Of a stretch of DNA of 64,000 bases, positions 1,536 through 63,286 are shown one piece after another. Below the pieces are notes generated by a model, which was not told the origin of the DNA, made no database searches, and was given only the letters and a program-made list of their open reading frames with translations. Position 1 is the first letter of the stretch; each line of letters opens with the position of its first letter. Made by a program: the position numbers and the translations under genes. Source of the DNA: a phage. The stretch is from the NCBI GenBank assembly GCA_017686895.1, contig GCA_017686895.1_4521.1; one strand, 5' to 3'.

Positions 1536-1576
1536 TGTACAACGATAGGACGACATGTTATTATCTTCCTATCGTC
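1536..1576 (+). promoter_or_regulatory. early-promoter-like element with 9-bp inverted repeat flanking the -10
   Basis: TGTACA -35-like, TATTAT -10, arms acgatagga / tcctatcgt. Confidence 0.4.
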
Positions 1577-1595
1577 TTAAAATGAGGAAAATATC

Positions 1596-1835
1596 ATGGC
1601 CCAAGAATTAGATTTTATCAAATTCAAAAAACACCTCGACGTTAAAATTGGGGATTCAATTGTTAGGATTGAGTATGACATTTTAACAGATGCTATTACT
1701 GTTAGTTGTGATGGAAATAGTTTCAGCTTCGATACAACCGAAAACAAATACCCAATCTATAAAGGCATCTTTGATATGGGTGTTGATATTACTCCACGTG
1801 ATACAAATTACTTACTTTTCATGCTTAAAAAATAA
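1596..1835 (+). CDS. hypothetical protein
   Basis: 79-aa ORF preceded by promoter-like element and GAGGAAA SD. Confidence 0.4.
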   Translation: MAQELDFIKFKKHLDVKIGDSIVRIEYDILTDAITVSCDGNSFSFDTTENKYPIYKGIFDMGVDITPRDTNYLLFMLKK

Positions 1836-1873
1836 TATACAACTCTTGAGAGATGAGTATAATTCTCTCGTTG
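1834..1873 (+). promoter_or_regulatory. early-promoter/stem-loop cassette (PeSL-like), copy 1
   Basis: acaactcttgagagatgagTATAATtctctc; GAGAGA/TCTCTC arms flank -10; near-identical copy at 47384-47423. Confidence 0.45.
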
Positions 1874-1900
1874 GATAATAAAATAACCGAGGAAAATAAT

Positions 1901-2233
1901 ATGTCTACTAAAATCAAAAACGTAGTTAATTCTTTCGCTTTCGATAAAGTTGTTGCTCTTCTGGAATCCGGCAATATTGTTACTCCTCAAGTTCTTGACG
2001 CGTGGGAATTCCGTCTTTATGAAATCATGCAAAAACACGACCAGAAAATTGGACGTAATTCTATTCGCGAAATTCTAGTGCAATATATTCTTTCTGAATT
2101 TGACGTTGCTGCATTTGGTGTTGAATCTAAAGCTTATCAGAAACATGAAATCTCTGAAAAGACTATCCGTCGTATGAAAAATCAACGTAAGAAAAAATTC
2201 GTTGACCTTAAAATTGTTAAGGCGGTAAAATGA
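1901..2233 (+). CDS. hypothetical protein
   Basis: ATG at 1901 after GAGGAAA SD; downstream of promoter-like cassette at 1834-1873. Confidence 0.4.
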   Translation: MSTKIKNVVNSFAFDKVVALLESGNIVTPQVLDAWEFRLYEIMQKHDQKIGRNSIREILVQYILSEFDVAAFGVESKAYQKHEISEKTIRRMKNQRKKKFVDLKIVKAVK

Positions 2234-3913: not shown

Positions 3914-4087
3914 CGTGACGAACATCCCGACTTCTGAAAATTTCGATAAAATCCGTAAAGGCAAAGCAGAAAGAACGAGACGTTTTAAAGAGTCTTATGA
4001 TAAAGCTAAAGCCGAAGGAACTATTACATACAAGCCCATTCGATTTAAAAGTTCAAATGAGCCTCTGTACGGTGTACTATGTGGATA
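3914..4087 (+). CDS. hypothetical small basic protein (GTG start)
   Basis: 57-aa ORF hand-translated; GAGG SD upstream; followed by terminator hairpin; below the track size cut-off. Confidence 0.2.
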
Positions 4088-4088
4088 G

Positions 4089-4112
4089 GAACTCTTCGGA
4101 GTTCCTTTTTTG
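4089..4112 (+). terminator. intrinsic terminator-like hairpin (UUCG loop) + T-run
   Basis: ggaactc-ttcg-gagttcc followed by tttttt. Confidence 0.55.
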
Positions 4113-4135
4113 CTTTATAAACGGATGATAGAATG
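4111..4135 (+). promoter_or_regulatory. middle-promoter-like element (MotA box + -10) upstream of gene 47
   Basis: TTGCTTTA then 11 nt then TAGAAT. Confidence 0.5.
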
Positions 4136-8014: not shown

Positions 8015-8910
8015 TAATTATGAATTTAATATATCTTATAACCTTTTATAATCGTGAGATTAAAAATGAATACCCGTGTTATTATATAGGTTCTAAAGTT
8101 TCGTGTCATTTTAATGGAAAGGATATTATTGAAGATTCTACCGGTAAAATATATACCGGTAGTGTTAATTCCTCGTATTCTCCTTTATATAACAGATTAA
8201 TAGACCAAGGCGAATATTCTGTAAAAATTTTAGGCGAAACCACATTAGACCCTAGAAGAATAGAAAGACTATTCCAACTCAATGTTAAAGCCGTTTCAAA
8301 TGAAAAATATTTTAATAAGGCTTATGCTAACGAGAAGTCTAGAATATCAGCTAAAGGATATGCACCGTATAAAAATTTAAAAACAGGCAAAATAGTAAAA
8401 CTTTCTAAAAACGAAATAAACGAAGATTACGTCGGTGTTAGAAAAAATTGCAAATTGTCGGAGAATCATTTAAACGCAATTAGAGAATTTCAAAAAACAT
8501 ATTGGACCAAAGAACGAAGAGAGAAAGTTTCTATTCGTTCTAAAAAAATGTTTAACGATAGAGATTTTGCTTTAAAATTTAAAGATATAATGAATTCTCC
8601 TAATGTTAAAGATAAAATAAAAATATCTAAAACATTGTATTGGTCTAAACCTGAAAATAGAGCAAAGGCCTCTATCGCAGCTTCGAAAAGAAATGCAACC
8701 AAAGAATTTAAGGATAAATTCAGAAAATCTAAAGCTAGAGGTACATGGATATTTCATGAACAAAAATTAAAGGAATTGTGGATTGCTTTAGGAAAACCAA
8801 GTTATATTACATTTAGAAAACATGCAATTCAGCATGGTTTTAATGATGAATCATACCAAGGTGCTATCCGGTCTTGGACAAATTATTATGCTAATAGGAA
8901 ACCTAAATGA
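8011..8910 (+). CDS. homing-endonuclease-like protein (GIY-YIG-like N-terminus, NUMOD-like C-terminal repeats)
   Basis: N-term LIYLITFYNREIKNEYPCYYIGSK resembles GIY..YIG; Lys-rich C-terminal S-x-x-x-K/R repeats; markedly AT-rich relative to flanking genes. Confidence 0.5.
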   Translation: MIIMNLIYLITFYNREIKNEYPCYYIGSKVSCHFNGKDIIEDSTGKIYTGSVNSSYSPLYNRLIDQGEYSVKILGETTLDPRRIERLFQLNVKAVSNEKYFNKAYANEKSRISAKGYAPYKNLKTGKIVKLSKNEINEDYVGVRKNCKLSENHLNAIREFQKTYWTKERREKVSIRSKKMFNDRDFALKFKDIMNSPNVKDKIKISKTLYWSKPENRAKASIAASKRNATKEFKDKFRKSKARGTWIFHEQKLKELWIALGKPSYITFRKHAIQHGFNDESYQGAIRSWTNYYANRKPK

Positions 8911-24469: not shown

Positions 24470-24518
24470 GTTTACTTCTCCAGTAGTTGTGTTATTATAG
24501 ACCTATCAACTACTGGAG
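24470..24518 (+). promoter_or_regulatory. early-promoter/stem-loop cassette (PeSL-like)
   Basis: GTTTAC -35, TATTAT -10, 12-bp arms ctccagtagttg / caactactggag flanking -10; right arm carries the SD. Confidence 0.5.
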
Positions 24519-24524
24519 AACAAA

Positions 24525-24842
24525 ATGAAAACCATCGATTGTAAAGCAGAATTTAAGATTTTTTATCACGGTTCAAGTAGTTCAGCTAACATCGAAAACA
24601 TGCTTTGTCCTCCTGAAGAAACAGGAGTTCTGTCTGAAACTGGACGTAAGAAAAACTTGGATCGTGTATTCTTTACTGAAGATATCGGTTTAGCAAAGAT
24701 TTATGCAGGACGAGCAGCACGCTCTTATGGAGGTGAACCACGTCTCTATCGAGTAATTTCTCCGGTAGATGTAGTTCAAATGAATGATACTAAAGGCGCT
24801 ACAGTTTATCACGCTGAATGGGCATTTTGCGAGGAAATATGA
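24525..24842 (+). CDS. hypothetical protein
   Basis: 105-aa ORF downstream of promoter/stem-loop cassette. Confidence 0.4.
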   Translation: MKTIDCKAEFKIFYHGSSSSANIENMLCPPEETGVLSETGRKKNLDRVFFTEDIGLAKIYAGRAARSYGGEPRLYRVISPVDVVQMNDTKGATVYHAEWAFCEEI

Positions 24843-25304: not shown

Positions 25305-25673
25305 ATGAAAAAATTAATCGCTTTAGCAATGGTATTTGGATTAACCGGATGTGGTGCCCATGGCTTTATCCCTAATAACGTCGGCCAATTGATTTACAAT
25401 CCGAATGTTAAACAGTACGACCAACCTAAAGTTGAAGTGGAAGACCCGGTTACTGTAGGTAATCGAATGATTCAAGCTGATGCCCATGCTCAACGTTATC
25501 GTGACTCTGATACCGTAGCATTGTCAAAAGAACAACGCGTTAAAGAACATTGTCTACAGGCTACTGAAATCGCATTCATTCGCTATGTTGAAACAACTGG
25601 TAAAGAGCCTACCCAGAAACAAATCGCGAATAACTACGTCCAGTGTATTGAACGTTTAAACAAATTTAATTAA
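25305..25673 (+). CDS. putative lipoprotein
   Basis: Signal peptide plus lipobox MKKLIALAMVFGLTGC. Confidence 0.5.
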   Translation: MKKLIALAMVFGLTGCGAHGFIPNNVGQLIYNPNVKQYDQPKVEVEDPVTVGNRMIQADAHAQRYRDSDTVALSKEQRVKEHCLQATEIAFIRYVETTGKEPTQKQIANNYVQCIERLNKFN

Positions 25674-25676
25674 TTG

Positions 25677-25706
25677 GTTTACACCAAAGTTAAAATAAGA
25701 TACTAT
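25677..25706 (+). promoter_or_regulatory. early-promoter-like element
   Basis: GTTTAC -35, TACTAT -10 upstream of imm-like gene. Confidence 0.45.
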
Positions 25707-25734
25707 AAACATAACAAATCAAGAGGAAATTAAC

Positions 25735-25983
25735 ATGGAATTATTCGTAGCTAGTTCAGTAGCAGTTTTAATCGCAGGTATTGGTTCAATCATCATTTAC
25801 ATGTTGCCTTGGGTAATCGCACTTATTCGTGGCACAAAAAGCACAACAGCAATCTTCTTTGTATCTTTACTCTTTAACTGGACGATGGTTGGTTGGATTG
25901 GAACTTTAATTTGGTCTATCGTTGCCGAAAAGAAATCTGCTCAGCAGCCTCAACAAGTAATTATTATTCGCGAAAAAGAATAA
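25735..25983 (+). CDS. imm: superinfection immunity protein Imm-like membrane protein
   Basis: 82 aa, two predicted TM helices; LPWVIALIRG...LLFNWTMVGWIGTLIWS resembles Imm family. Confidence 0.6.
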   Translation: MELFVASSVAVLIAGIGSIIIYMLPWVIALIRGTKSTTAIFFVSLLFNWTMVGWIGTLIWSIVAEKKSAQQPQQVIIIREKE

Positions 25984-25987
25984 ACTT

Positions 25988-26026
25988 GTTTACATTATAG
26001 ATGGACTATAGTATAGTAGTCCTATC
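25988..26026 (+). promoter_or_regulatory. early-promoter-like element
   Basis: GTTTAC -35, TATAGT -10, conserved agtcctatc start region. Confidence 0.45.
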
Positions 26027-26046
26027 AAATTAACTAAGGAGTTAAA

Positions 26047-31976: not shown

Positions 31977-32033
31977 TGTACAAACTCTTCCGATGATGAT
32001 ACTATACCTTTATCAACCACAGGAGAAACCTAA

Positions 32034-35857: not shown

Positions 35858-35888
35858 GTTTACAACCAAGGATGGTTGGAGTATAATC
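35858..35888 (+). promoter_or_regulatory. early-promoter-like element
   Basis: GTTTAC -35, TATAAT -10. Confidence 0.45.
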
Positions 35889-35917: not shown

Positions 35918-36412
35918 ATGAATATCAATACTACGGCTACTTACATCCTGAAAGATGAAAAACAAATCAACTGGTACGGTGCTTCAGTGCGAGCTTATGA
36001 AAAGTTTTGTGAAATTTTAGGTGCCACTCAAGGTAATAGTTTCACTATTGTTAACTTCATCAAACAAGTTGAAGGCCCTTGGTTATTCTTAGAAATTAAA
36101 AATTCATATGGTACAATTTCTACCACCGCCCTTCCAAGCACCGACTTTGAACTGTTGATTGAAGAAGTAGAACCCGTTAAAGATATCTGTATTGATATGG
36201 ATATCGCTTGTATGTACGGTACTCTGATTAAGCCTATTGAGCCTACTGATTTGTTGTGTAAATATGTTTCAATTCGACGCCCATTCGCTGGTCCAGTAAA
36301 TGGATGGGTGACTGATCAGTGGATTGAAGACGGTGTTGAACTTCTGAACGTTGTTCATGCAGGTGATTTTAGTGTAGTTCCACGTAGTGCTGTGGTTAAT
36401 ATCCTTAATTAA
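35918..36412 (+). CDS. hypothetical protein, paralog family member 1
   Basis: C-terminal GWVTDQWIEDGVELLNVVHAGDFSVVP shared with next two ORFs. Confidence 0.45.
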   Translation: MNINTTATYILKDEKQINWYGASVRAYEKFCEILGATQGNSFTIVNFIKQVEGPWLFLEIKNSYGTISTTALPSTDFELLIEEVEPVKDICIDMDIACMYGTLIKPIEPTDLLCKYVSIRRPFAGPVNGWVTDQWIEDGVELLNVVHAGDFSVVPRSAVVNILN

Positions 36413-36473
36413 TGTTGTACATCCAAGGACGGGTGGAGTATAATGAATTCAACTTAAACAAAGAGAGAAAATT

Positions 36474-36959
36474 ATGAATCTTGGTATTATTGGTGAAATC
36501 GTTCGCGTATCTAACAAATCTCGTTCTAAAGCAGCAGGAAAATTGGTCGAAGTTGTAAGTATTCAACTTAAAGAAGGCGTTAAAGATGAAGATTCTGAGG
36601 TAAAAGTTCGTATTATTCCTAGTCTTGGGTCGAGGGAAACTCAGTTCGCTTATGTTCGTGCAAAGTTCTTGGAAACTCCTGCGAGTAGTGCTTTTGCTTC
36701 AAGAGAAAAAGTTGAATCCACAGAGCCTAATGTACAGTTCAAATGGGCCTTGTGTAAAGGTGTTGAATTCCAGACTGATAAAGAATTTGACTTCATCGAT
36801 GAATATGGTTATCCAAGCACAACTGATACCATGTGTGGCTTCATTAGTGACCAATGGGTAGAAGATGGTGAAAAGTTATACAATATCGTATTCTTAGGTG
36901 ACTTCCGAGTTGTTAAAGAATCCGAAATCACTCGCTATGTGTCTCCTCGTAAAGCTTAA
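36474..36959 (+). CDS. hypothetical protein, paralog family member 2
   Basis: SRSKAAGKLVEVVS and GFISDQWVEDGEKLYNIVFLGDFRVV shared with neighbours. Confidence 0.5.
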   Translation: MNLGIIGEIVRVSNKSRSKAAGKLVEVVSIQLKEGVKDEDSEVKVRIIPSLGSRETQFAYVRAKFLETPASSAFASREKVESTEPNVQFKWALCKGVEFQTDKEFDFIDEYGYPSTTDTMCGFISDQWVEDGEKLYNIVFLGDFRVVKESEITRYVSPRKA

Positions 36960-36968
36960 GGAATTATT

Positions 36969-37388
36969 ATGAATATTGTAAATCTCTCTACAGGTGATTA
37001 CGTATATGTATCTGTTGCTTCTCGCTCTAAAGTTGCCGGGAAGTTGGTTGAAGTTCTTTCTGTGAGTGATCCGGTTTTTGGTCGTAACCAAGTTAAAGTT
37101 CGTGATGCTAATGGTAATATTGGCTACGTCTCAAGCCAGTTCATTGAGCCAGAAGAAAAAGCGTTCAAATGGGGACTATGCAGATCAGTTTCTGTTGAAA
37201 AAGACCATGAATTCACTATTGCTGCGGCAACTGATGGAACGCCATGGAAAACTAAGCAAATCGCCGGATTTATTAGCGACCGTTGGGTAGAAGATGGTGT
37301 TAAGCTTTATAACATCGTTTTCGCTGGTCAGTTCATGGTAGTTCCTGAATTCCAAATTAAAAAATATAGCCCAGCTGCTTTCGCATAA
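36969..37388 (+). CDS. hypothetical protein, paralog family member 3
   Basis: SRSKVAGKLVEVLS and GFISDRWVEDGVKLYNIVFAGQFMVV shared with neighbours. Confidence 0.5.
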   Translation: MNIVNLSTGDYVYVSVASRSKVAGKLVEVLSVSDPVFGRNQVKVRDANGNIGYVSSQFIEPEEKAFKWGLCRSVSVEKDHEFTIAAATDGTPWKTKQIAGFISDRWVEDGVKLYNIVFAGQFMVVPEFQIKKYSPAAFA

Positions 37389-37392
37389 AGTT

Positions 37393-37442
37393 GTTTACTT
37401 CTCCTCTGGTTTTGATATTATAACCATATCAACCAGAGGAGA
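37393..37442 (+). promoter_or_regulatory. early-promoter/stem-loop cassette (PeSL-like)
   Basis: gtttacttctcctctggtt..TATTAT..aaccagaggagaa; 11-12-bp arms flank -10; related to cassette at 24470. Confidence 0.5.
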
Positions 37443-37447
37443 ATAAT

Positions 37448-37972
37448 ATGTTAGTTTACCGCGTAGAACGTAGTTTTTGCACTCAACGTGAATCATTACC
37501 AGGAATTGCTATCGAAGACGGTAAAGCCGTCAGAATTTGGGAAACCTCTTGGAATAAAGAACCTCGTTCGCCATACGGTTGGTCGGGCACCGACAACTCT
37601 GAAGAAACATGGGAGTTCCTTGATAAGCATGGAATACTCTCAGGTAACTTCTACCATCACGGCGACAACTATAATGTCCCTAATCGTCCTACAGTAAATG
37701 AAGACAAACTTCTTGAACAAAATATCTTAAGATACCATAGAATTGAGTACACATTTGAATTGAGTGAAGATTGGGCTCAAGGGTTCTATTTTGGATTTGA
37801 AAGCGTTGACGCGGTTTATGCATGGTTTGATGACCAGGTGGATGTTGAACTCTTGAAAGCTAAAGGATACTACATCGCGGTCTATGAAGCACCTGATTTC
37901 ATCCTCGGAAGTTGTCAATTAATGTTTAGACGTTCATTGGCAGAACAAGTTGATTTTATTTTGCTAAAATGA
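37448..37972 (+). CDS. hypothetical protein
   Basis: 174-aa ORF after promoter/stem-loop cassette. Confidence 0.45.
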   Translation: MLVYRVERSFCTQRESLPGIAIEDGKAVRIWETSWNKEPRSPYGWSGTDNSEETWEFLDKHGILSGNFYHHGDNYNVPNRPTVNEDKLLEQNILRYHRIEYTFELSEDWAQGFYFGFESVDAVYAWFDDQVDVELLKAKGYYIAVYEAPDFILGSCQLMFRRSLAEQVDFILLK

Positions 37973-38029
37973 TGTACAACAACTATGGTCTATGATACTA
38001 TAGACCTATCAAAACAAGAGGAGAATATT

Positions 38030-38851: not shown

Positions 38852-39277
38852 ATGGCTTTTAAAGGTTTTGAAGTTGGTAAGAAATATCGTATTATCAAAG
38901 GTCAAGAAGATAATTTCTTGAGAATTCTTAATACGACCGGTAAACGTCTTAATACTAATCTGCATACTACTTTATTGTCCAAAGATTTTATTGTGGAAGA
39001 GATGATTGGTTACGGTGTTTCGGTTATTGCTGTAGAAGCCGTAGGCGATTATGGTCGAACTATTCATAGTATGCAAGGTGATATTCTGCTTTATGGTGCA
39101 GAATTTAAATTCTTTGAAGAAGTTCCGGAACCAGATACATCTGTCGATTTCAAAAAAGGCTCTATAGAATTTGTTGATGGATCGGTGATCGTATCAGGCG
39201 ATGTGGTCATTACAGTTAAAAGTGAACAAGGGCGTTTGGCTGTAATTGATGCACTTCAGAAAATTAAATTTAAATAA
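38852..39277 (+). CDS. hypothetical protein
   Basis: 141-aa ORF ending at terminator hairpin. Confidence 0.45.
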   Translation: MAFKGFEVGKKYRIIKGQEDNFLRILNTTGKRLNTNLHTTLLSKDFIVEEMIGYGVSVIAVEAVGDYGRTIHSMQGDILLYGAEFKFFEEVPEPDTSVDFKKGSIEFVDGSVIVSGDVVITVKSEQGRLAVIDALQKIKFK

Positions 39278-39294
39278 GGGCTTCGGCCCTTTTT
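39278..39294 (+). terminator. intrinsic terminator upstream of gene 39 promoter
   Basis: gggc-ttcg-gccc followed by ttttt. Confidence 0.6.
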
Positions 39295-39318
39295 GCTTTA
39301 GATTTCGGATGATAGAAT
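39293..39318 (+). promoter_or_regulatory. middle-promoter-like element (MotA box + -10) upstream of gene 39
   Basis: TTGCTTTA then 12 nt then TAGAAT; near-copy of the element upstream of gene 47. Confidence 0.5.
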
Positions 39319-46121: not shown

Positions 46122-46598
46122 ATGAAAGTGAAGATTGCTGACACTGCTCGGTATTCACTAAGCCAAAATCCAGACCAAAACAAAGAAGATGTAGTTCGAC
46201 GTTGTAAGGTTGCAGTCTTTGCAGAGTATGTAGTAGCAAATTGGCTAGACGGATATGTTAATAAAGGTATTGAAGATGTAGAAGACCCGTACACGTATGC
46301 ATGGGACGTGTTAGCCCATCCCAAATATTGTGGAATTCGTGTAGAAGTCAAGACACATCAGATGGATTCTAAATGGATTTCTGTTACCACAGGATACAGT
46401 GGTGATTATCCGGGTGGCAACGGAATCAACATAGGGCCCTTCCTTAATCATCGAGTCGCTGACTGTATTATTATATTGAATGTCAAAGAAACCTCACCTG
46501 ACGTCTTCTCTTATTCTATAAAGTTCGTTGGAGACCATGAAGACCTAAAGAAAATCGTCCGCAAGAGCAACTACAACGGGTGGTATCTTCATCTTTAA
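46122..46598 (+). CDS. hypothetical protein (denB position)
   Basis: 158-aa ORF between rIIB and ndd, where T4 has denB; identity unverified. Confidence 0.35.
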   Translation: MKVKIADTARYSLSQNPDQNKEDVVRRCKVAVFAEYVVANWLDGYVNKGIEDVEDPYTYAWDVLAHPKYCGIRVEVKTHQMDSKWISVTTGYSGDYPGGNGINIGPFLNHRVADCIIILNVKETSPDVFSYSIKFVGDHEDLKKIVRKSNYNGWYLHL

Positions 46599-46610
46599 TT
46601 TCATAAAAGT

Positions 46611-46649
46611 GTTTACAACTAAGTAGGACTATGATATAGTAGTCCTATC
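46611..46649 (+). promoter_or_regulatory. early-promoter-like element
   Basis: GTTTAC -35, TATAGT -10, agtcctatc start region. Confidence 0.45.
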
Positions 46650-46666
46650 TAAAAGAGGATAACATC

Positions 46667-46930: not shown

Positions 46931-47122
46931 GCTCTAAAATGTGGATTGGAATATGGTTGCTTAGTATCCCAATGATTTGTATAATATTTTCAATTGTGTT
47001 GAGGTACTTATGAAAAATGCACTTCTTATTGTACTAAAAACAATTTGTGATACTGGTTTTTACATTGCATGTTCGTTCACTGGAACATGGCTGGCTTTAA
47101 CATATTTTAATGTAATTTAATT

Positions 47123-47160
47123 GTTTACATCATGGTAGGATTATGGTATAGTAGTCCTAT
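47123..47160 (+). promoter_or_regulatory. early-promoter-like element
   Basis: GTTTAC -35, TATAGT -10, agtcctatc start region. Confidence 0.45.
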
Positions 47161-47180
47161 CAAAACACGAGGAATACAAA

Positions 47181-47381
47181 ATGGCTAAGCTTTTTAAAGA
47201 TGTTGAAATTGGTGAAAAATTTGTCCTGAATAATGGTCAGCAGCTTATTCGTGTAGCTTCTATAGCCGGACAAACTCATAACTGCATCGCCCCAACGTGT
47301 TGGACCCGATTCTTTATTGAGGATGACACCGAATGTTTAACCGTTGAAGAGCTTTTTGAACGTTCTGATATGACCGAATAA
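47181..47381 (+). CDS. hypothetical protein
   Basis: 66-aa ORF after early-promoter-like element. Confidence 0.4.
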   Translation: MAKLFKDVEIGEKFVLNNGQQLIRVASIAGQTHNCIAPTCWTRFFIEDDTECLTVEELFERSDMTE

Positions 47382-47383
47382 AA

Positions 47384-47423
47384 TTGTACAAACTCTTGAG
47401 AGCAGAGTATAATGCTCTCATGG
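47384..47423 (+). promoter_or_regulatory. early-promoter/stem-loop cassette (PeSL-like), copy 2
   Basis: acaaactcttgagagcagagTATAATgctctc; near-identical to 1834-1873. Confidence 0.45.
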
Positions 47424-47457
47424 ATTACAAAAACATTAATCAATTGAGGAAATTAGC

Positions 47458-47904
47458 ATGTCCAAATATTTAACTCGTAAAGACCTTCTGGCCGTTGGCG
47501 GTGAAGTTGTTGCAGTAGTTCGTAATGGTGAATACGGTTCCGAAGTTTCTAAAGAGTTTCGTTCTCGTGAAGGTTTTTACTTCTTTGTTAAAGGTTCATC
47601 TGACTGGCGACAAGTAGCAGCACGATTCTTTGTAGGACGTCAACGTTCTAAACAAGGGTTAGATGCAATTCTTTCTCACATTCGTCAAGGCCGTTCACAA
47701 CTAGCTCGTACCATGGGTACTAATAATATTGAATATGACGTAATTTTTGTTTCAGCCAAGAACATGAAACCTCTGACCACTGGTTATGGTAAAGGTCAAT
47801 TGGCTCTGGCATTCACTCGCAATCATTCATCAGAATATCAAACACTCACTGAAATGAACCGTCTCCTGGCTGATAATTTCAAATTCATTCTGCAGAGTTA
47901 CTAA
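47458..47904 (+). CDS. ndd: nucleoid disruption protein Ndd
   Basis: QRSKQG...[14 protein letters not shown]...[22 protein letters not shown]...LADNFKF matches T4 Ndd as recalled. Confidence 0.85.
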
Positions 47905-47911
47905 TTTATAT

Positions 47912-47945
47912 AGGCCTATTAAGTTAGGCCTTTAATTTATTTTTG
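47912..47945 (+). terminator. terminator-like hairpin after ndd
   Basis: aggcct-attaagtt-aggcct then T-rich tract. Confidence 0.35.
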
Positions 47946-49691: not shown

Positions 49692-49730
49692 GTTTACATG
49701 TGCTTCAAACGTGATATTATAGACCTATCA
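49692..49730 (+). promoter_or_regulatory. early-promoter-like element
   Basis: GTTTAC -35, TATTAT -10, agacctatc; near-duplicate of 50013-50050. Confidence 0.45.
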
Positions 49731-49759
49731 AAACAAAACAACCAAATTGGAGAAATAAA

Positions 49760-59452: not shown

Positions 59453-62400
59453 TTATTCAACCCATATAAATTTAACTGTTTTGTTAACCGGGTCTGGAAC
59501 AATTCTCACATTTCCTAATTGTAAGAAGTCTCGAACAGTAAGGTTTCCAATAACAGCATTATCAGATGGGATAGCACCGACATCGCTAGGTGAAGGTGGG
59601 TTGCCACTATCAAATACCATTGCAAATGAAGTCCAAGCATCTTTATTTTTCTGCCAGGTACGAGTATATCGAATACTACCACCATTTGCACCTGTAGGAT
59701 AACAAATCCAATCCTGATAAAGCGAATCTAAGCTATTGCCGAATTGAGTCAAAGTACCAGGATATTTAATTTCTTGGTCACGGTTACCTTTGTTATCACG
59801 CGTCCAGTATCCAGGGAATTGGCTATATACGGCAGAATCGTTAATGTCAATAGACCAAAAACCTACAGTAGAAGCTGTTGGTTTATCGGTATAAACCGTG
59901 GCAGTTTTAACGCCGTTAGAAATAATCCTGTTATTTACAGTTAACCCACCGGTAGTTATTGTTGCACCACTTGTGATTTGAACACCGTTGTCAAGACGAA
60001 CTAGGCCTGTGGCATTGTTAATCGTGATCGGGCGTAAGTTATTAAACGTCCCGGTCTGGTCACCTGAGTTAGTTAATGCAATATAAGAACTGTCACCAGC
60101 ATTATAAAGCATAACACCATAGTTACCGTTAATAGCTCTGAATGCAATAGGAGAACTAGAAACAATTTCGCCTGTAGCACTAATAGGCCCGGTAAATGTA
60201 GAAACACCTGTAACATTTAATCCATTTGTAGAAACAATACCTGTTGAATAAAGTGTTCCATTAATATTAAATGATACTTTATTATCAGAAGCGCGCTGAG
60301 AATAGAAATGGTATCCGGTTTCGTCACCCGCTTCAAATACTGTATCACGGGCACCATCTGTAGCGCTATTACCCCATGCTCTAACAACGAAATTCTCTTT
60401 ATTACTAAGAGATTGGGTTCCTTTAGTGAAAACTATTTCGGAACCGCTAGAGTCATTAAGAGTTAATCTACGAGTAACAGATGCTTCGGAACCAAAAGAA
60501 GCAGTGCTTGTAGATACTAAAGGAGCACTCAGGTTGGTCTGTTTAGTAAGACTTAAAGAACCATTAACCGTCTGGTCGATGTCTCTACGGATGAACTGAA
60601 GAGAATCTAGACCATCTAACAGATTACTATCTACGGCTTTAGCTTTCAATGGTAAGTAGTTAGCAAGTACACGGTTTAATTCATATGGAGAAATAGCATA
60701 ACTATTTTTCTCATAAAGATTCAGGTCCTGGGTACTACCTTGAGTATCGTCACCAACGAATGTAATAGAACCGGATGAAGTTTTAACGAATCCGCGAATT
60801 GCTGTAGTAGCAGCCCATGTTGGTTCATCCTGGACAATCCATTTTAAATTCTTAGGCGATACAGCAGTATTAGCAGAAGTTCCTGTTACAGTTTCAGCCT
60901 GAGTAGCAACCTTAATTACACCTTCAGATGTTTCAGTGGACTTAGTCCCTAAAAGCTTTTTAGGAGTAATAAGAACATCATCTAAAGTTCCTGCATTAGA
61001 TTCTGCCTGGGTCGCTACACGAAGTGTACCACGTTGTGTTTCATTTGCTTTAGAAATATCAAGAGTATAATGGTTCCACAAGGTTCCTTCTTCAATAAGT
61101 CCGGAATCAGAATTAACACTGGTACGGTCAGAAGAATCAAAATGAGTTTTAATTTTCAGTGGAGACGAGATACGAGTATCGTCAGTTCCAGTATCAAATT
61201 CAACTTGCGTAGCAATTTCGGCTATGCCGGATAATCCTTCCGTAGCTTTCCTATCATTTAACGTCTTAGGCGTTACTGCTCTAGTATAATCAGTTCCAGT
61301 GTTAGTTTCTGCTTGCGTAGCAATTTCAATTAAACCAATACGTCCATCAGTAGAAGTTTTCTTATGCAGAGTTTCAGGAGTCACTACAGCATTAGCCCAA
61401 CCGGTTTGTGATTCACCAGCGATAACTTCACTTTCAATAGCAAGAATTACTGCGCCCTGTTGAGTAGGGGTAGCTTTATACTGGTCAAGAGCCTTTGGAG
61501 AAATAGTTAAATTATCTACGGCTTTGTTATAAACGTTAGTCCCAGCATTACCACGAACAGTAGCCGCTGTAGTACCAGTCGTAGATGTGTATTTTACAAT
61601 ACCAGATAAAACTTCAGAACCTTGACGGGCATCCAATTTCTTAGGAGTAATAATAGTGGTATCATCTATGCCAGCATTAGTTTCATCCTGAGTTGCAACT
61701 TCAGCAACACCTCTACGGGTTTCAGTTGCTGTACGTTCGTTCAATTTCTTAGGAGAAATAATCAAGTCGTCTTGGAATGCAAAATCGGTATTCTGGTTAA
61801 CTTGTGCAGTTGTTGCAATTCGAGCAATACCACGACGAGTTTCAGTTGCTGTACGATTTGCTAATGTTTCCGGAGTAATAGCCAGTTCTTTACCAGGAGC
61901 ATTTTCTAAATCAACATTTGCTTGCGCTTGAGAAGCAAGAGCAATAACACCTAAACGAGCTCGAGTGGTATTGCTCGATGCATCGACTCGTTCGACGGTT
62001 ACGGTGTTTTGTTGAACTACCCAATATTTTGTTTCAGATGAATAATCTTCTATATAAGCTAACTCAAGTACAGGTACATACGAAGTATCACCATTAAATT
62101 CCAGCTCACTAACAGAAACCCATTGTGCATCAGGTGGATACTCTGAACGTTTTGGGAACTGTAATAAAGAAATACTGCTAGCAATTGTATCGCCTTCAGC
62201 AGCTTTAATTTTTACAGTTTGCCCTTTACGCATATAATTCAACGATATTTTAACAGTATCACCAGACAAAATATCTGTAGGCAAAGTAAGATTTACCGTC
62301 GAGATTGTATCATTATTAGTTCCAAAAACAAGAACTTCTTCATTAGGGCGTAAATCAGTATCATTACGAACTATACGTAAACGAGATTTCTGGTCACCTT

Positions 62401-63286
62401 CCCAAACACGCCATAAGCTATTAGCAGAATCATAAACAAAGAATGCTTCTGCAGTATTACGTCCTTCTGCTACATGAACACCGGCTTCTCGTATAGAAGT
62501 TGTATCATCGTAAGTTTTGACAATTGTGTGATATAACGGGTTTAATTTGTCTAAATCAACTAAATTAATAATATCGCCATTATTAGCATTGCGAGGCAAT
62601 GTAATATTAATAGGAGCGGCTGATGTAAAACGTCGAATGATAAAATCGTTAGGTTGCGCCTGATATGGCTTAGCAGGAGTTACTGTGACTGCATTACGTT
62701 CGTAATCAGAAACATACATTTGCCATAGGCGGTTGCTAAAAATGAAGACCATTTTAGATTTTGGGTGCGTCATTAAAACTGAACGAACCTGTTGTCCTCT
62801 AAAGTTTACAATACTTTGAGCCTCTGCAGTAATTTGAACTTTTACATAGCCTACTCTACCGCCAATATCAGACAAAATAACTGTATCGCCATTTAAAGGA
62901 TTTTTAGGCAAAGTGAAATTAATATCAGTGCCAGCTGAAGTATCAACCGCAATAGAGTTACCTACTGATAATTGGAAATCTCCGCCTTGAACTGTAATCC
63001 ATTCTGCATCTGTACGAGTTGCCTTCCATTTAGCCAAAGAGAAAGGGCCCGCCGGAGCTGGAATATCACTTAAAGCTTGATAAAAACGATTATCATAAAG
63101 AACAATAAAATCTTTTGTATACGCGCGCGTATCGTCATAATTCTGTACGGTGTTTTCTTGCACCAAAAAGTCAACGTTCACGCCATCGGTGCCAACTGTG
63201 CGGTCAGCAAGCGCAACGTTAACTATCTTATCACCGCCTGCGTCAAGACCATCTTCGGCCCTGAACTTACGTTTGATGTCAACCAT
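59453..63286 (-). CDS. 34: long tail fibre proximal subunit gp34
   Basis: 1277 aa; internal repeats of ATQAETN(T/A)GTD...TPK(K/T)L type; late promoter upstream. Confidence 0.92.
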   Translation of the reverse strand: MVDIKRKFRAEDGLDAGGDKIVNVALADRTVGTDGVNVDFLVQENTVQNYDDTRAYTKDFIVLYDNRFYQALSDIPAPAGPFSLAKWKATRTDAEWITVQGGDFQLSVGNSIAVDTSAGTDINFTLPKNPLNGDTVILSDIGGRVGYVKVQITAEAQSIVNFRGQQVRSVLMTHPKSKMVFIFSNRLWQMYVSDYERNAVTVTPAKPYQAQPNDFIIRRFTSAAPINITLPRNANNGDIINLVDLDKLNPLYHTIVKTYDDTTSIREAGVHVAEGRNTAEAFFVYDSANSLWRVWEGDQKSRLRIVRNDTDLRPNEEVLVFGTNNDTISTVNLTLPTDILSGDTVKISLNYMRKGQTVKIKAAEGDTIASSISLLQFPKRSEYPPDAQWVSVSELEFNGDTSYVPVLELAYIEDYSSETKYWVVQQNTVTVERVDASSNTTRARLGVIALASQAQANVDLENAPGKELAITPETLANRTATETRRGIARIATTAQVNQNTDFAFQDDLIISPKKLNERTATETRRGVAEVATQDETNAGIDDTTIITPKKLDARQGSEVLSGIVKYTSTTGTTAATVRGNAGTNVYNKAVDNLTISPKALDQYKATPTQQGAVILAIESEVIAGESQTGWANAVVTPETLHKKTSTDGRIGLIEIATQAETNTGTDYTRAVTPKTLNDRKATEGLSGIAEIATQVEFDTGTDDTRISSPLKIKTHFDSSDRTSVNSDSGLIEEGTLWNHYTLDISKANETQRGTLRVATQAESNAGTLDDVLITPKKLLGTKSTETSEGVIKVATQAETVTGTSANTAVSPKNLKWIVQDEPTWAATTAIRGFVKTSSGSITFVGDDTQGSTQDLNLYEKNSYAISPYELNRVLANYLPLKAKAVDSNLLDGLDSLQFIRRDIDQTVNGSLSLTKQTNLSAPLVSTSTASFGSEASVTRRLTLNDSSGSEIVFTKGTQSLSNKENFVVRAWGNSATDGARDTVFEAGDETGYHFYSQRASDNKVSFNINGTLYSTGIVSTNGLNVTGVSTFTGPISATGEIVSSSPIAFRAINGNYGVMLYNAGDSSYIALTNSGDQTGTFNNLRPITINNATGLVRLDNGVQITSGATITTGGLTVNNRIISNGVKTATVYTDKPTASTVGFWSIDINDSAVYSQFPGYWTRDNKGNRDQEIKYPGTLTQFGNSLDSLYQDWICYPTGANGGSIRYTRTWQKNKDAWTSFAMVFDSGNPPSPSDVGAIPSDNAVIGNLTVRDFLQLGNVRIVPDPVNKTVKFIWVE

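Follow-up and report, generated by a model that had tools for sequence, protein, structure and literature searches.

Promoter early stem-loop (PeSL) cassettes, which combine an early promoter with a stem-loop, have been described in T4-type phages (Arbiol et al., 2010, PMC2839356; Comeau et al., 2014, PMC4122927). The comparison of PST with T4 gives ndd.4/.5 as an example of PeSL exchange (PMC4122927). Mosigvirus is not described in these two papers, RB69 is mentioned in neither and JS98 appears in passing. Here we analyse 64,000 nucleotides (nt) of phage DNA (contig GCA_017686895.1_4521.1 of assembly GCA_017686895.1; this whole stretch is called the window below), which carry two copies of a promoter/hairpin element of this kind, referred to as locus 1 and locus 2.

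The second system to which the element has to be compared is RNA cleavage by RegB/S1. The target is 11 nt of single-stranded RNA with the T4 consensus GGAGAAUAAAA, generalised to GGAGRAYARAA (Durand et al., 2006, PMC1702504). In the heptamer RAYARAA (positions 5-11), A is found at positions 6, 8 and 11, Y at position 7, and C is not accepted at position 9. Only two of 30 intergenic GGAU sequences of T4 are cut, at orf 55.2 and at motB.2, and GGAA is very poorly cut. For motB and orf 55.2, the regB-dependent cut between G and A has been reported in vivo. In the T4 motB leader an efficient RegB/S1 cut lies in GGAGUAUAAAA, and reverse-transcriptase stops observed 3 min after infection were assigned to the motB promoter (all PMC1702504). 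A regB gene and RegB cleavage sites have also been reported for RB69 (PMC1702504; review PMC3014915).

We propose, with a probability of roughly 0.7, that each of the two loci is a copy of a compact, portable PeSL-type cassette of the T4 motB family, in which a promoter, a hairpin and a RegB/S1-type site are superimposed. The repeat, the family, the covariation and the recombination junctions were observed here; for the motB promoter and for RegB cleavage of the RNAs of motB and 55.2 we rely on the T4 literature.

The initial annotation had reported near-identical promoter/stem-loop cassettes of about 35 nt at two places 45 kb apart. This repeat was recovered: acaactcttgagagatgagTATAATtctctc is located at 1839-1869 and acaaactcttgagagcagagTATAATgctctc at 47388-47419, with 45,550 bp between them. 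Scanning both strands of the window with the pattern CTCTTGAGAGNNNAGTATAATNCTCTC and up to three mismatches identified these two sites only and none in 100 dinucleotide shuffles; no further copy was found in the window apart from a chimeric 5′ half at 31977. The pattern CTCTTGAGAG-N3-AGTATAAT-N-CTCTC has exactly two matches, at 1843-1869 and 47393-47419, with 0 expected, and a direct-repeat search paired both loci as a 43 nt repeat with 79% identity (D17). A spacer stretch of 10 nt is identical in both copies. The length of 35 nt turned out to be too short, since the conserved unit is about 50 nt long and reaches from the -35 hexamer to an 11-nt GGAU/A-rich block (1836-1883 and 47385-47432). 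In a pairwise comparison the DNA similarity of the two loci was limited to -1 to +41 of the cassette. That the repeat is part of a gene duplication was rejected, as the downstream proteins belong to different families (phrog_1475 and phrog_1102). A search of the whole window with Rfam at gathering thresholds revealed no known RNA family.

At each site a promoter scan found 10 of 12 matches to the sigma-70 consensus, in TATACA-16-TATAAT (ending at 1863) and in TGTACA-17-TATAAT (ending at 47413). The 25 nt upstream have an A+T content of 80% at locus 1 and 68% at locus 2, compared to 63% for the window, which is a weak signal at locus 2. From the promoter spacing, transcription is predicted to start at approximately G1870 and A47420, respectively. 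Both cassettes are intergenic: at locus 1 the upstream stop codon TAA is at 1833-1835 and the downstream ATG at 1901, at locus 2 they are at 47379-47381 and 47458. A MotA-dependent middle promoter and a late promoter were considered and rejected, because sequence inspection revealed no TGCTT box at -30 and no TATAAATA (consensus from PMC2988021). Promoters with a stem around the -10 hexamer occur eight times on the + strand of the window and 3.8 times in shuffles (maximum 12), which is suggestive only.

To find family members we used the anchor pattern ACTCTTG-N6-GAGTATAAT with the arms left free, which matched viral contigs 48 times. Of these matches, 33 are true cassettes and lie in T-even contigs; with the two window copies the number is 35. 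They precede at least nine distinct N-termini, and their downstream DNA clusters into seven classes. One copy lies in T4 between motB.1 and motB (GTTTACAAACTCTTGGGACCAGAGTATAATGGTCCCGTGGAGTATAAAATC...ATG). That the T4 motB promoter belongs to this family, and that the cassette contains a third component of the RegB/S1 type, had been missed in the initial annotation. BLAST with the 53-nt cassette returned 741 phage records; among the genomes listed, Mosigvirus members carry the cassette in three to four places each and most Tequatrovirus members in one, which in T4 and Sa45lw is the motB position. The arms differ between lineages, with GAGAG- types in the window's own lineage and GGG- types in the JS98-like copies.

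In addition, we used a search that does not depend on the motif and collected homologues of 55.2 by protein from viral contigs. The upstream DNA of the resulting 16 loci falls into four groups. Two close relatives carry the cassette, one of them with an arm of the locus 2 type (GGGAGC/GCTCTC), and five JS98-like genomes (approximately 155-172 kb) carry GTTTACAAACTCTTGGGACCAGAGTATAATGGTCC(T/C)ACGGATTAT. Seven Mosigvirus-type contigs have a UUCG-tetraloop terminator instead (GGGCTTCGGCCC, followed by T5-6), which is joined to the same leader GGATAATAAAAT, and the remaining two have other hairpin-containing sequences. The block ACTCTTG was demanded by the pattern search, yet it is also present in the seven protein-found orthologues with a cassette.

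As the initial annotation had stated, the arms of an inverted repeat flank the -10 hexamer, GAGAGA/TCTCTC at locus 1 and (T)GAGAGC(A)/(T)GCTCTC(A) at locus 2. Folding gave a stem of 6 bp with -7.6 kcal/mol (z = -2.4) for locus 1 and of 8 bp with -12.6 kcal/mol (z = -4.2) for locus 2; across the cassette copies the energies range from -7.6 to -14.6 kcal/mol. Covariation was analysed in an alignment of 17 distinct cassettes with an 8-pair helix (A1), and core pairs were counted in 18 distinct copies with six pairs each. Paired cells amount to 98.5% in the 17 cassettes, compared to 85.6 ± 1.8% in column shuffles, none of 500 of which reached the observed value. If the 3′ partner is slid by one to three columns, pairing drops to 35-53%. 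Double compensatory changes occur at four of the eight pairs (G-C/A-U; A-U/G-C; G-C/C-G/U-A; C-G/A-U), and RNAalifold predicts the same helix when no structure is supplied. The arm types found were GAGAGA, GAGAGC, GGGAGC, GGGACC, GGGATC, GGGGTC and GGGGCC; in spite of this variety, the core pairs are complete (6/6) in all 18 distinct copies, with ten G-U and no A-C pairs. In unrelated matches to the anchor pattern (n = 11) two to four of the six core positions pair, with a single exception (L028). This exception is located on an apparently unrelated phage contig of 94 kb (IMGVR_UViG_3300022932_000015; 8424-8445, minus strand), where TTGATATA-ggagtataat-TATATCAA forms a perfect inverted repeat upstream of an ATG, and may represent an independent case of a promoter inside a hairpin.

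The arms vary and nevertheless stay complementary, which argues against an operator for a sequence-specific protein. The occurrence of G-U without A-C pairs indicates that the structure is read on the + strand, that is, as RNA; the G-U pairs are mostly found at the outer end of the stem, which tempers this strand argument. Altogether, the data point to a stem that is under selection for pairing as a sense-strand RNA hairpin in read-through transcripts. The left arm precedes the start site of the cassette itself, so the hairpin is only possible in RNA that enters from upstream, from ORF79 (the open reading frame, ORF, upstream of locus 1) or from ndd.1 (upstream of locus 2). Masking of the Shine-Dalgarno (SD) sequence by the ACTCTTG block in read-through RNA was also considered: some members have CAAGAG near the SD, but folding of both window loci lacks such a pairing, and this candidate was rejected.

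The third component directly follows the hairpin. All 18 copies have GGA(U/G) 8-9 nt past the -10 hexamer and 2-3 nt past the right arm, at about +3 of the predicted transcript, and the A-rich heptamer after GGA scores five to seven of seven across the copies. The window loci have GGAU at 1873-1876 and 47422-47425, which fits the rule for position 4 (G, more rarely U). The heptamer of locus 1, AAUAAAA, equals the consensus; in that of locus 2, UACAAAA, the U at position 5 is tolerated, and the C at position 7 fits Y but has not been seen among cut T4 sites. For the leaders of the cassette transcripts, folding gave -1.3 and -3.3 kcal/mol, which is not better than for shuffled sequences, and these leaders are predicted to lack structure. 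Read-through RNA has the site just 3′ of the hairpin, and RNAalifold adds two weak pairs that touch the GG. Both SD sequences (GAGGAA) contain only GGAA. The T4 55.2 leader reads ...GGGCTTCGGCCTTTTTGGATAATAAAATTTTAACGTAATTGAGGATAATGTATG, and its block GGAUAAUAAAA is identical to window positions 1873-1883. Two GGAU sequences lie upstream of T4 55.2 and only the one in GGAUAAUAAAA is followed by the strict A-rich sequence that a GGAU requires according to Durand et al. (PMC1702504); it is therefore probably the GGAU site of 55.2 that RegB cuts. In the Mosigvirus Shf125875, with 97.6% identity to the window at locus 2, a regB gene is annotated; the position of regB falls outside the window. Taken together with the T4 data, we infer that RegB would cleave at both loci.

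Alignment with related phages, which had been suggested in the initial annotation, revealed insertion, deletion and replacement junctions at the cassette borders. In these pairwise comparisons positions are counted from the A of ACTCTTG. Locus 1 and a JS98-like locus are homologous in the 55.3 gene and in the cassette with 55.2 (-14 to +391); right before the cassette, 307 nucleotides (1520-1826) are present only in the window of the two and contain a further cassette (cassette B) and ORF79. Cassette B and the cassette at 1836-1883 thus bracket ORF79 in the order cassette-ORF-cassette, and they have only T(G/A)TACAAC in common. T4, JS98-like phages and some Mosigviruses lack ORF79. Compared to the window, T4-type Mosigviruses lack -317 to +28; the junction is exactly at the end of the right arm, and the terminator joins the same GGATAATAAAAT leader. 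Further relatives show the same kind of event: in one comparison (L055 against L048) the 5′ edge of the cassette holds an inserted module of approximately 290 nt, and two contigs (L031 and L062) share the upstream gene and the cassette with L027 and have the downstream gene replaced or deleted, with junctions at +49 to +59. Another contig (L056) has two cassettes 412 nt apart around one ORF of 114 amino acids (aa), directly upstream of ndd. Overall, junctions were found at -14/-20, +28/+30 and +49 to +59. When the contexts were clustered, copies with a common upstream context were found to precede different downstream genes, and vice versa. This junction pattern is what the PeSL model predicts (PMC2839356, PMC4122927). 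The assignment to PeSL in the initial annotation is thus supported by the promoter, the A/T-rich upstream DNA, the stem-loop over the -10 hexamer, the intergenic position in plastic regions and the junctions at the cassette borders. The promoter at 31977-32027 appears to be a composite, with a 5′ half (GTGTACAAACTCTT) that is identical to the cassette and a 3′ half (GATGATACTATACCTTTATCAACCACAGGAGAA) that belongs to another repeat family of the window (D5); such a chimera suggests recombination inside cassettes.

According to the proposed working of the cassette, a sigma-70 promoter consisting of the -35 hexamer T(T/G/A)TACA, a 16-17 nt spacer with ACTCTTG and GAGTATAAT would fire right after infection without phage proteins, and transcription would begin at the purine directly 3′ of the right arm. 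The hairpin arms lie in the spacer and the discriminator, where a promoter is least constrained. RegB is proposed to remove the triphosphorylated 5′ end of the cassette's own mRNA and to leave a 5′-OH. T4 polynucleotide kinase turns 5′-OH into 5′ monophosphate, which licenses decay by RNase E/G (review PMC3014915), and owing to this decay 55.2 and ndd might be expressed in the first minutes of infection only. Cleavage at this site in read-through RNA would split the upstream from the downstream cistron, with the hairpin of the upstream fragment 4-5 nt away from its newly formed 3′ end. Here the hairpin would cap the 3′ end of the upstream cistron and might impede 3′ exonucleases; RegB products are attacked by PNPase once the 3′ phosphate is removed (review PMC3014915). 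At the DNA level, the approximately 50 bp common to the copies would serve as portable homology, through which recombination may insert, delete and swap small genes between phages. Promoter activity and RegB cleavage at the window loci, the role of the hairpin and the recombination mechanism are thus the parts of this account that we infer.

Several observations weigh against the proposal. The cassette copies are often related by descent, so that cell counts overstate the number of independent events, and in the pattern-based set ACTCTTG and GAGTATAAT are fixed by construction. The start sites were placed by spacing alone, and the promoter of locus 1 has a weakened -35 hexamer (TATACA) and a spacer that is 1 nt shorter than that of locus 2, and may be a poor one. 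Most intergenic GGAU sequences of T4 resist RegB (Durand et al., PMC1702504), the site of locus 2 has U at positions 4 and 5, and the GGAU sequence of T4 55.2 that RegB cuts was assigned here as the more probable of two. RegB-like 11-mers are not enriched on the + strand of the window (8, compared to 10.9 ± 3.3 in shuffles); the argument for the RegB site therefore rests on position and conservation and not on count. The role of the hairpin in protecting 3′ ends is a proposed one.

A different and less probable weighting of the three components should be mentioned here. In the T4 55.2 and ndd leaders a pair of hairpin and RegB-type site persists where no promoter is recognisable. We tentatively consider that hairpin and RegB/S1 site could be the conserved, ancestral functional pair of T-even phages, in place of promoter and terminator, with the promoter as an overlay in some lineages; the hairpin would then act as 3′ cap and may set the presentation of the GGA, and the RegB/S1 site would serve to take the 5′ triphosphate off the cassette's own transcript. 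T4 55.2 itself was rejected as a promoter-bearing orthologue, since a terminator replaces the cassette there.

According to the classical PeSL model, the stem-loop terminates or attenuates incoming transcription, so that 55.2 and ndd would be expressed only from their own promoters. The stem-loops of phi1 reduce lacZ expression to about the level of the rrnB T1 terminator (PMC2839356), a true UUCG-type terminator is found exactly in the position of the cassette before 55.2 in T4 and some Mosigviruses, the window hairpins are on the sense strand of read-through RNA, and a TransTermHP-based annotation of a relative places a terminator at about the hairpin of the neighbouring cassette B. However, neither window hairpin is followed by a U tract (the next bases are GUUGGAUAAU and UGGAUUACAA), and Rho-independent termination without one is atypical. 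The stems are short (6-8 bp) with loops of 8-10 nt, and the hairpins were neither called in the terminator scan nor annotated as terminators in NBG1 or SA35RD. An intrinsic terminator was therefore rejected as the identity of the element on the consensus scan and the missing U tract; termination or attenuation is kept as a weaker explanation that we regard as rather unlikely.

It is improbable that the two copies result from recent duplication or gene conversion and that the hairpin and the GGAU block are functionless and travel with the promoter. The distribution of the arms, GAGAG- in the window lineage and GGG- in the JS98-like copies, fits concerted evolution. Neutral hitch-hiking, however, predicts neither double changes at four pairs with nearly all cells paired nor the fixed distance of 8-9 nt to the GGA, and in T4, where the leaders of 55.2 and ndd have no recognisable promoter, it does not predict that a hairpin with a GGA(G/U)-A-rich block was kept.

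The inverted repeat might also act as DNA, either as a palindromic operator, at which a dimeric protein of the phage or the host would bind and shut the promoter off, or as a cruciform that targets recombination nucleases. It straddles the -10 hexamer, which is a classical operator position, and the recombination junctions cluster at the cassettes. For a sequence-specific operator one would expect the arm sequences to be conserved, and the opposite was observed, with complementarity conserved and sequences not. Ten G-T combinations on the + strand correspond to A-C mismatches on its complement, and no A-C is found on the + strand; this asymmetry is at odds with a symmetric duplex or cruciform. 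In addition, arms of 6-8 bp with a spacer of 8-10 nt are unfavourable for cruciform extrusion. A function as DNA is thus very improbable. Finally, T4 early promoters share a consensus beyond the -35 and -10 hexamers (PMC2988021), and several other promoter families of the window start with GTTTAC and end in TATAAT-like hexamers, but an explanation of the likeness as that of strong T-even early promoters, with the inverted repeat and the extra identity due to chance, is already refuted by the uniqueness of the 27-nt pattern (22 specified bases, up to three mismatches, only two sites among many promoter-like sequences of the window) and by the covariation: the similarity extends beyond the promoter consensus into the identical spacer stretch, and the arms covary in the 18 copies and do not pair in unrelated sequences with the same anchors.

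Nucleotide comparison with relatives showed that the window comes from an RB69-like T-even phage of the genus Mosigvirus, of which it represents the early region. Over its first 6 kb, more than 140 genomes of T-even phages align at 95-99% identity, with Escherichia phage PECP20 as the top match (98.5%). In the annotated relative SA35RD (genus Mosigvirus, RB69 group) the gene order is 55.8 ... 55.3, small ORFs, 55.1, 55, a-gt.3, 47, 46, all on the + strand of the window. Locus 2 is surrounded by rIIB - denB - ORFs - ndd.1 - ndd - ac - 52.1 - 52. The gene order at both loci, taken from the annotation of the relatives, sets the direction of early transcription as the + strand. Locus 1 lies within the 55.x cluster and locus 2 within the ndd.x cluster, both plastic regions of small accessory early genes. 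The initial annotation had placed each site upstream of a small ORF of unknown function; the position was correct, whereas the ORFs encode a 55.2 homologue and Ndd (Table 1). Going by the title of the paper '55.2, a Phage T4 ORFan Gene...' (PMC4396842), gp55.2 is an inhibitor of Escherichia coli Topoisomerase I. At locus 2 the cassette promoter, ndd and the terminator-like hairpin behind it look like a short self-contained unit.

Table 1. Positions of cassette components, flanking genes and neighbouring elements in the window. Promoter elements, Shine-Dalgarno sequences and RegB/S1-type sites are predictions.
Feature	Position	Strand	Basis or remark
Cassette B, upstream of ORF79	1536..1575	+	-35 TGTACA 1536-1541; arms ACGATAGGA 1542-1550 and TCCTATCGT 1567-1575; -10 TATTAT 1559-1564
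ORF79, upstream of locus 1	1596..1835	+	79 aa; phrog_11314, function unknown
Locus 1, -35 hexamer TATACA	1836..1841	+	16-nt spacer; directly after TAA stop 1833-1835 of ORF79
Locus 1, spacer block ACTCTTG	1842..1848	+	common to all family members found
Locus 1, left arm GAGAGA	1848..1853	+	promoter spacer, about -23 to -18
Locus 1, -10 hexamer TATAAT	1858..1863	+	within hairpin loop (1854-1863)
Locus 1, right arm TCTCTC	1864..1869	+	discriminator, -6 to -1
Locus 1, RegB/S1-type site GGAUAAUAAAA	1873..1883	+	equals block in T4 55.2 leader
Locus 1, Shine-Dalgarno GAGGAA	1889..1894	+	sequence
T4 gp55.2 homologue	1901..2233	+	110 aa; 75% identity; phrog_1475
ndd.1 homologue, upstream of locus 2	47181..47381	+	66 aa; ndd.1 in relatives
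Locus 2, -35 hexamer TGTACA	47385..47390	+	17-nt spacer
Locus 2, spacer block ACTCTTG	47392..47398	+	common to all family members found
Locus 2, left arm TGAGAGCA	47397..47404	+	folding, covariation
Locus 2, -10 hexamer TATAAT	47408..47413	+	in loop and last stem pair
Locus 2, right arm TGCTCTCA	47413..47420	+	folding, covariation
Locus 2, RegB/S1-type site GGAUUACAAAA	47422..47432	+	7/7 on permissive reading of A-rich rules; less favoured U at positions 4 and 5
Locus 2, Shine-Dalgarno GAGGAA	47446..47451	+	sequence
ndd (nucleoid disruption protein)	47458..47904	+	148 aa; phrog_1102, E = 1.6e-56; annotated ndd in relatives
Terminator-like hairpin, then T-rich run, 3′ of ndd	47912..47931	+	terminator scan

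The window contains further repeated promoter cassettes. Five copies of one family (D1) are located at 25660-25719, 25971-26030, 37955-38014, 46594-46653 and 47106-47165; they consist of GTTTAC, a spacer and TAGGACTAT-gata-TAGTCCTA and have an inverted repeat of 8-12 bp over a TATAGT -10 hexamer. The ndd cassette is immediately preceded by two small ORFs that are headed by the copies at 46594 and 47106, which makes the denB-ndd interval a run of cassette-ORF units. In the D2/D5 family (408-465, 24470-24527, 37393-37450 and 49692-49749; also 25266 and 31995) a left arm in the spacer (TTCTCCAGTAGTTG) pairs with a right arm that holds the SD and a RegB-consensus site (CAACTACTGGAGAACAAAATG). Judged from the pairing, SD and RegB site are predicted to be hidden in read-through RNA and exposed in the promoter's own RNA. 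The copies at 24470 and 37393 show compensatory differences, and T4 motB.2, with the other RegB-cut GGAU site, has the same architecture.

Two composites, at 4087-4133 and 39270-39317, consist of a UUCG-type terminator hairpin, TTTTTGCTTTA-N-A-N3-C, the RegB-like 11-mer GGATGATAGAA, an SD and ATG; one of them precedes gene 47, near the T4 region with the 47.1 site reported as moderately cut by RegB. Three tandem motB paralogues (36098-37385) share 27-57% identity with MotB-class proteins encoded downstream of the cassette in other phages. In the window these paralogues are preceded by the D16 promoter, TACA(A/T)CCAAGGA(T/C)GG(T/G)TGGAGTATAAT, at 35861 and 36418, and not by the T4 motB cassette. 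Diverged direct repeats at 60869-62920 (D3, D4, D18, D19) are spaced at multiples of approximately 108 nt, which looks like repetitive coding sequence, probably on the minus strand.

Two annotations in relatives concern the same regions. In SA35RD (L001) a 'rho-independent terminator' is annotated at 2043-2086 with WebGeSTer/TransTermHP, which corresponds to about 1536-1580 of the window and thus lies about at cassette B; automated terminator callers may label promoter-embedded hairpins in T-even genomes. At the T4 55.3/55.2 junction (L068, 1300-1380) the annotated 55.3 coding sequence crosses the terminator-like hairpin and GGAUAAUAAAA and ends 13 nt before the 55.2 ATG; the Mosigvirus 55.3 homologue stops before the hairpin (...KKFS*/KKFG*). 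The difference is probably a frame difference of approximately 1 nt in T4 55.3.

The cassette joins two literatures in one element, that on PeSL as mobile regulatory cassettes and that on the RegB/S1 biochemistry of the T4 motB leader, and the same cassette heads motB, 55.2, ndd and other early genes across Tequatrovirus, Mosigvirus and JS98-like phages. In the annotation of the window, 55.2 and ndd can be named and two predicted early promoters and two probable RegB sites marked. If hairpin and RegB/S1 site are indeed the conserved pair, the 'stem-loops' of PeSL in T4-like coliphages would be boundary elements of RNA processing, each small gene would be an autonomous, short-lived expression unit whatever the origin of the transcript, and the three-part cassette would be what the genomes shuffle. 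The proposed cassette makes a testable model, in which newly acquired small genes of T-even phages get immediate but transient expression.

Compared to the known systems, the window cassettes resemble PeSL in having a sigma-70-type early promoter, an A/T-rich upstream region and a stem-loop, which lies over the -10 box as in one of the two commonest positions in phi1 (PMC2839356, PMC4122927). They are likewise intergenic, between an upstream stop codon and a downstream SD/ATG, and located in plastic small-gene regions with indel and replacement junctions; tandem cassette-ORF-cassette arrangements are present in L056 and at window positions 1536-1883. In contrast to PeSL, the stem is neither of the Gn-loop-Cn type of RB49/phi1 nor located just upstream of the promoter as in PST/T4. 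The hairpins have no U tract, which makes a terminator function doubtful. A RegB/S1-type site is an integral part of the window cassette, whereas neither PeSL paper mentions RegB, and the downstream genes are the accessory genes 55.2 and ndd and not ORFans.

The T4 motB promoter/leader has the same cassette, GTTTACAAACTCTTG, arm, (C)AGAGTATAAT, arm, N2-3, GGA(G/U)-A-rich, and its block GGAGUAUAAAA has U at positions 5 and 7 and also A at positions 9 and 10, as described for the 'motB RNA' that served as model substrate (PMC1702504). The window copies differ from it in preceding 55.2 and ndd, in having GGAU and not GGAG, in their arms (GAGAGA/GAGAGC compared to GGGACC) and in their weaker -35 hexamers. 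The leaders of T4 55.2 and ndd are similar to the window loci in that a hairpin is followed within a few nucleotides by GGAUAAUAAAA (55.2) or GGAGUAGAAAA (ndd), GAGGA(A/U) and ATG; the ndd leader reads GGCCGtgtgtattcatgCGGCC tt GGAGTAGAAAA ... GAGGAAattaatATG. Unlike the window loci, they have no embedded promoter: the 55.2 hairpin is a UUCG-type terminator in place of the cassette, and the ndd leader has a GC hairpin whose loop contains only a decayed -10-like TATTCA. The promoters of T4 gene e, gene 49 and soc lie within hairpins that mask the ribosome-binding site in read-through RNA. Common to these genes and the window loci is a promoter inside an inverted repeat, the own transcript of which lacks the 5′ arm. 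However, in gene e, gene 49 and soc the 3′ arm holds the SD/AUG, whereas the window hairpin ends before the RegB-type site and the SD and masks neither. The D2/D5 family provides examples of the masking type at other places of the window.

Altogether, the kind of element is that of PeSL, which has been described already, and nothing is overturned; its sequence family is that of the T4 motB promoter/leader, and the RegB site of the 55.2 leader was probably already known in T4. What appears to be added is the assignment of both window loci and of further Mosigvirus and JS98-like copies to the T4 motB family, the covariation evidence for the stem as sense-strand RNA, and the RegB/S1-type site as a constant third component of the cassette.

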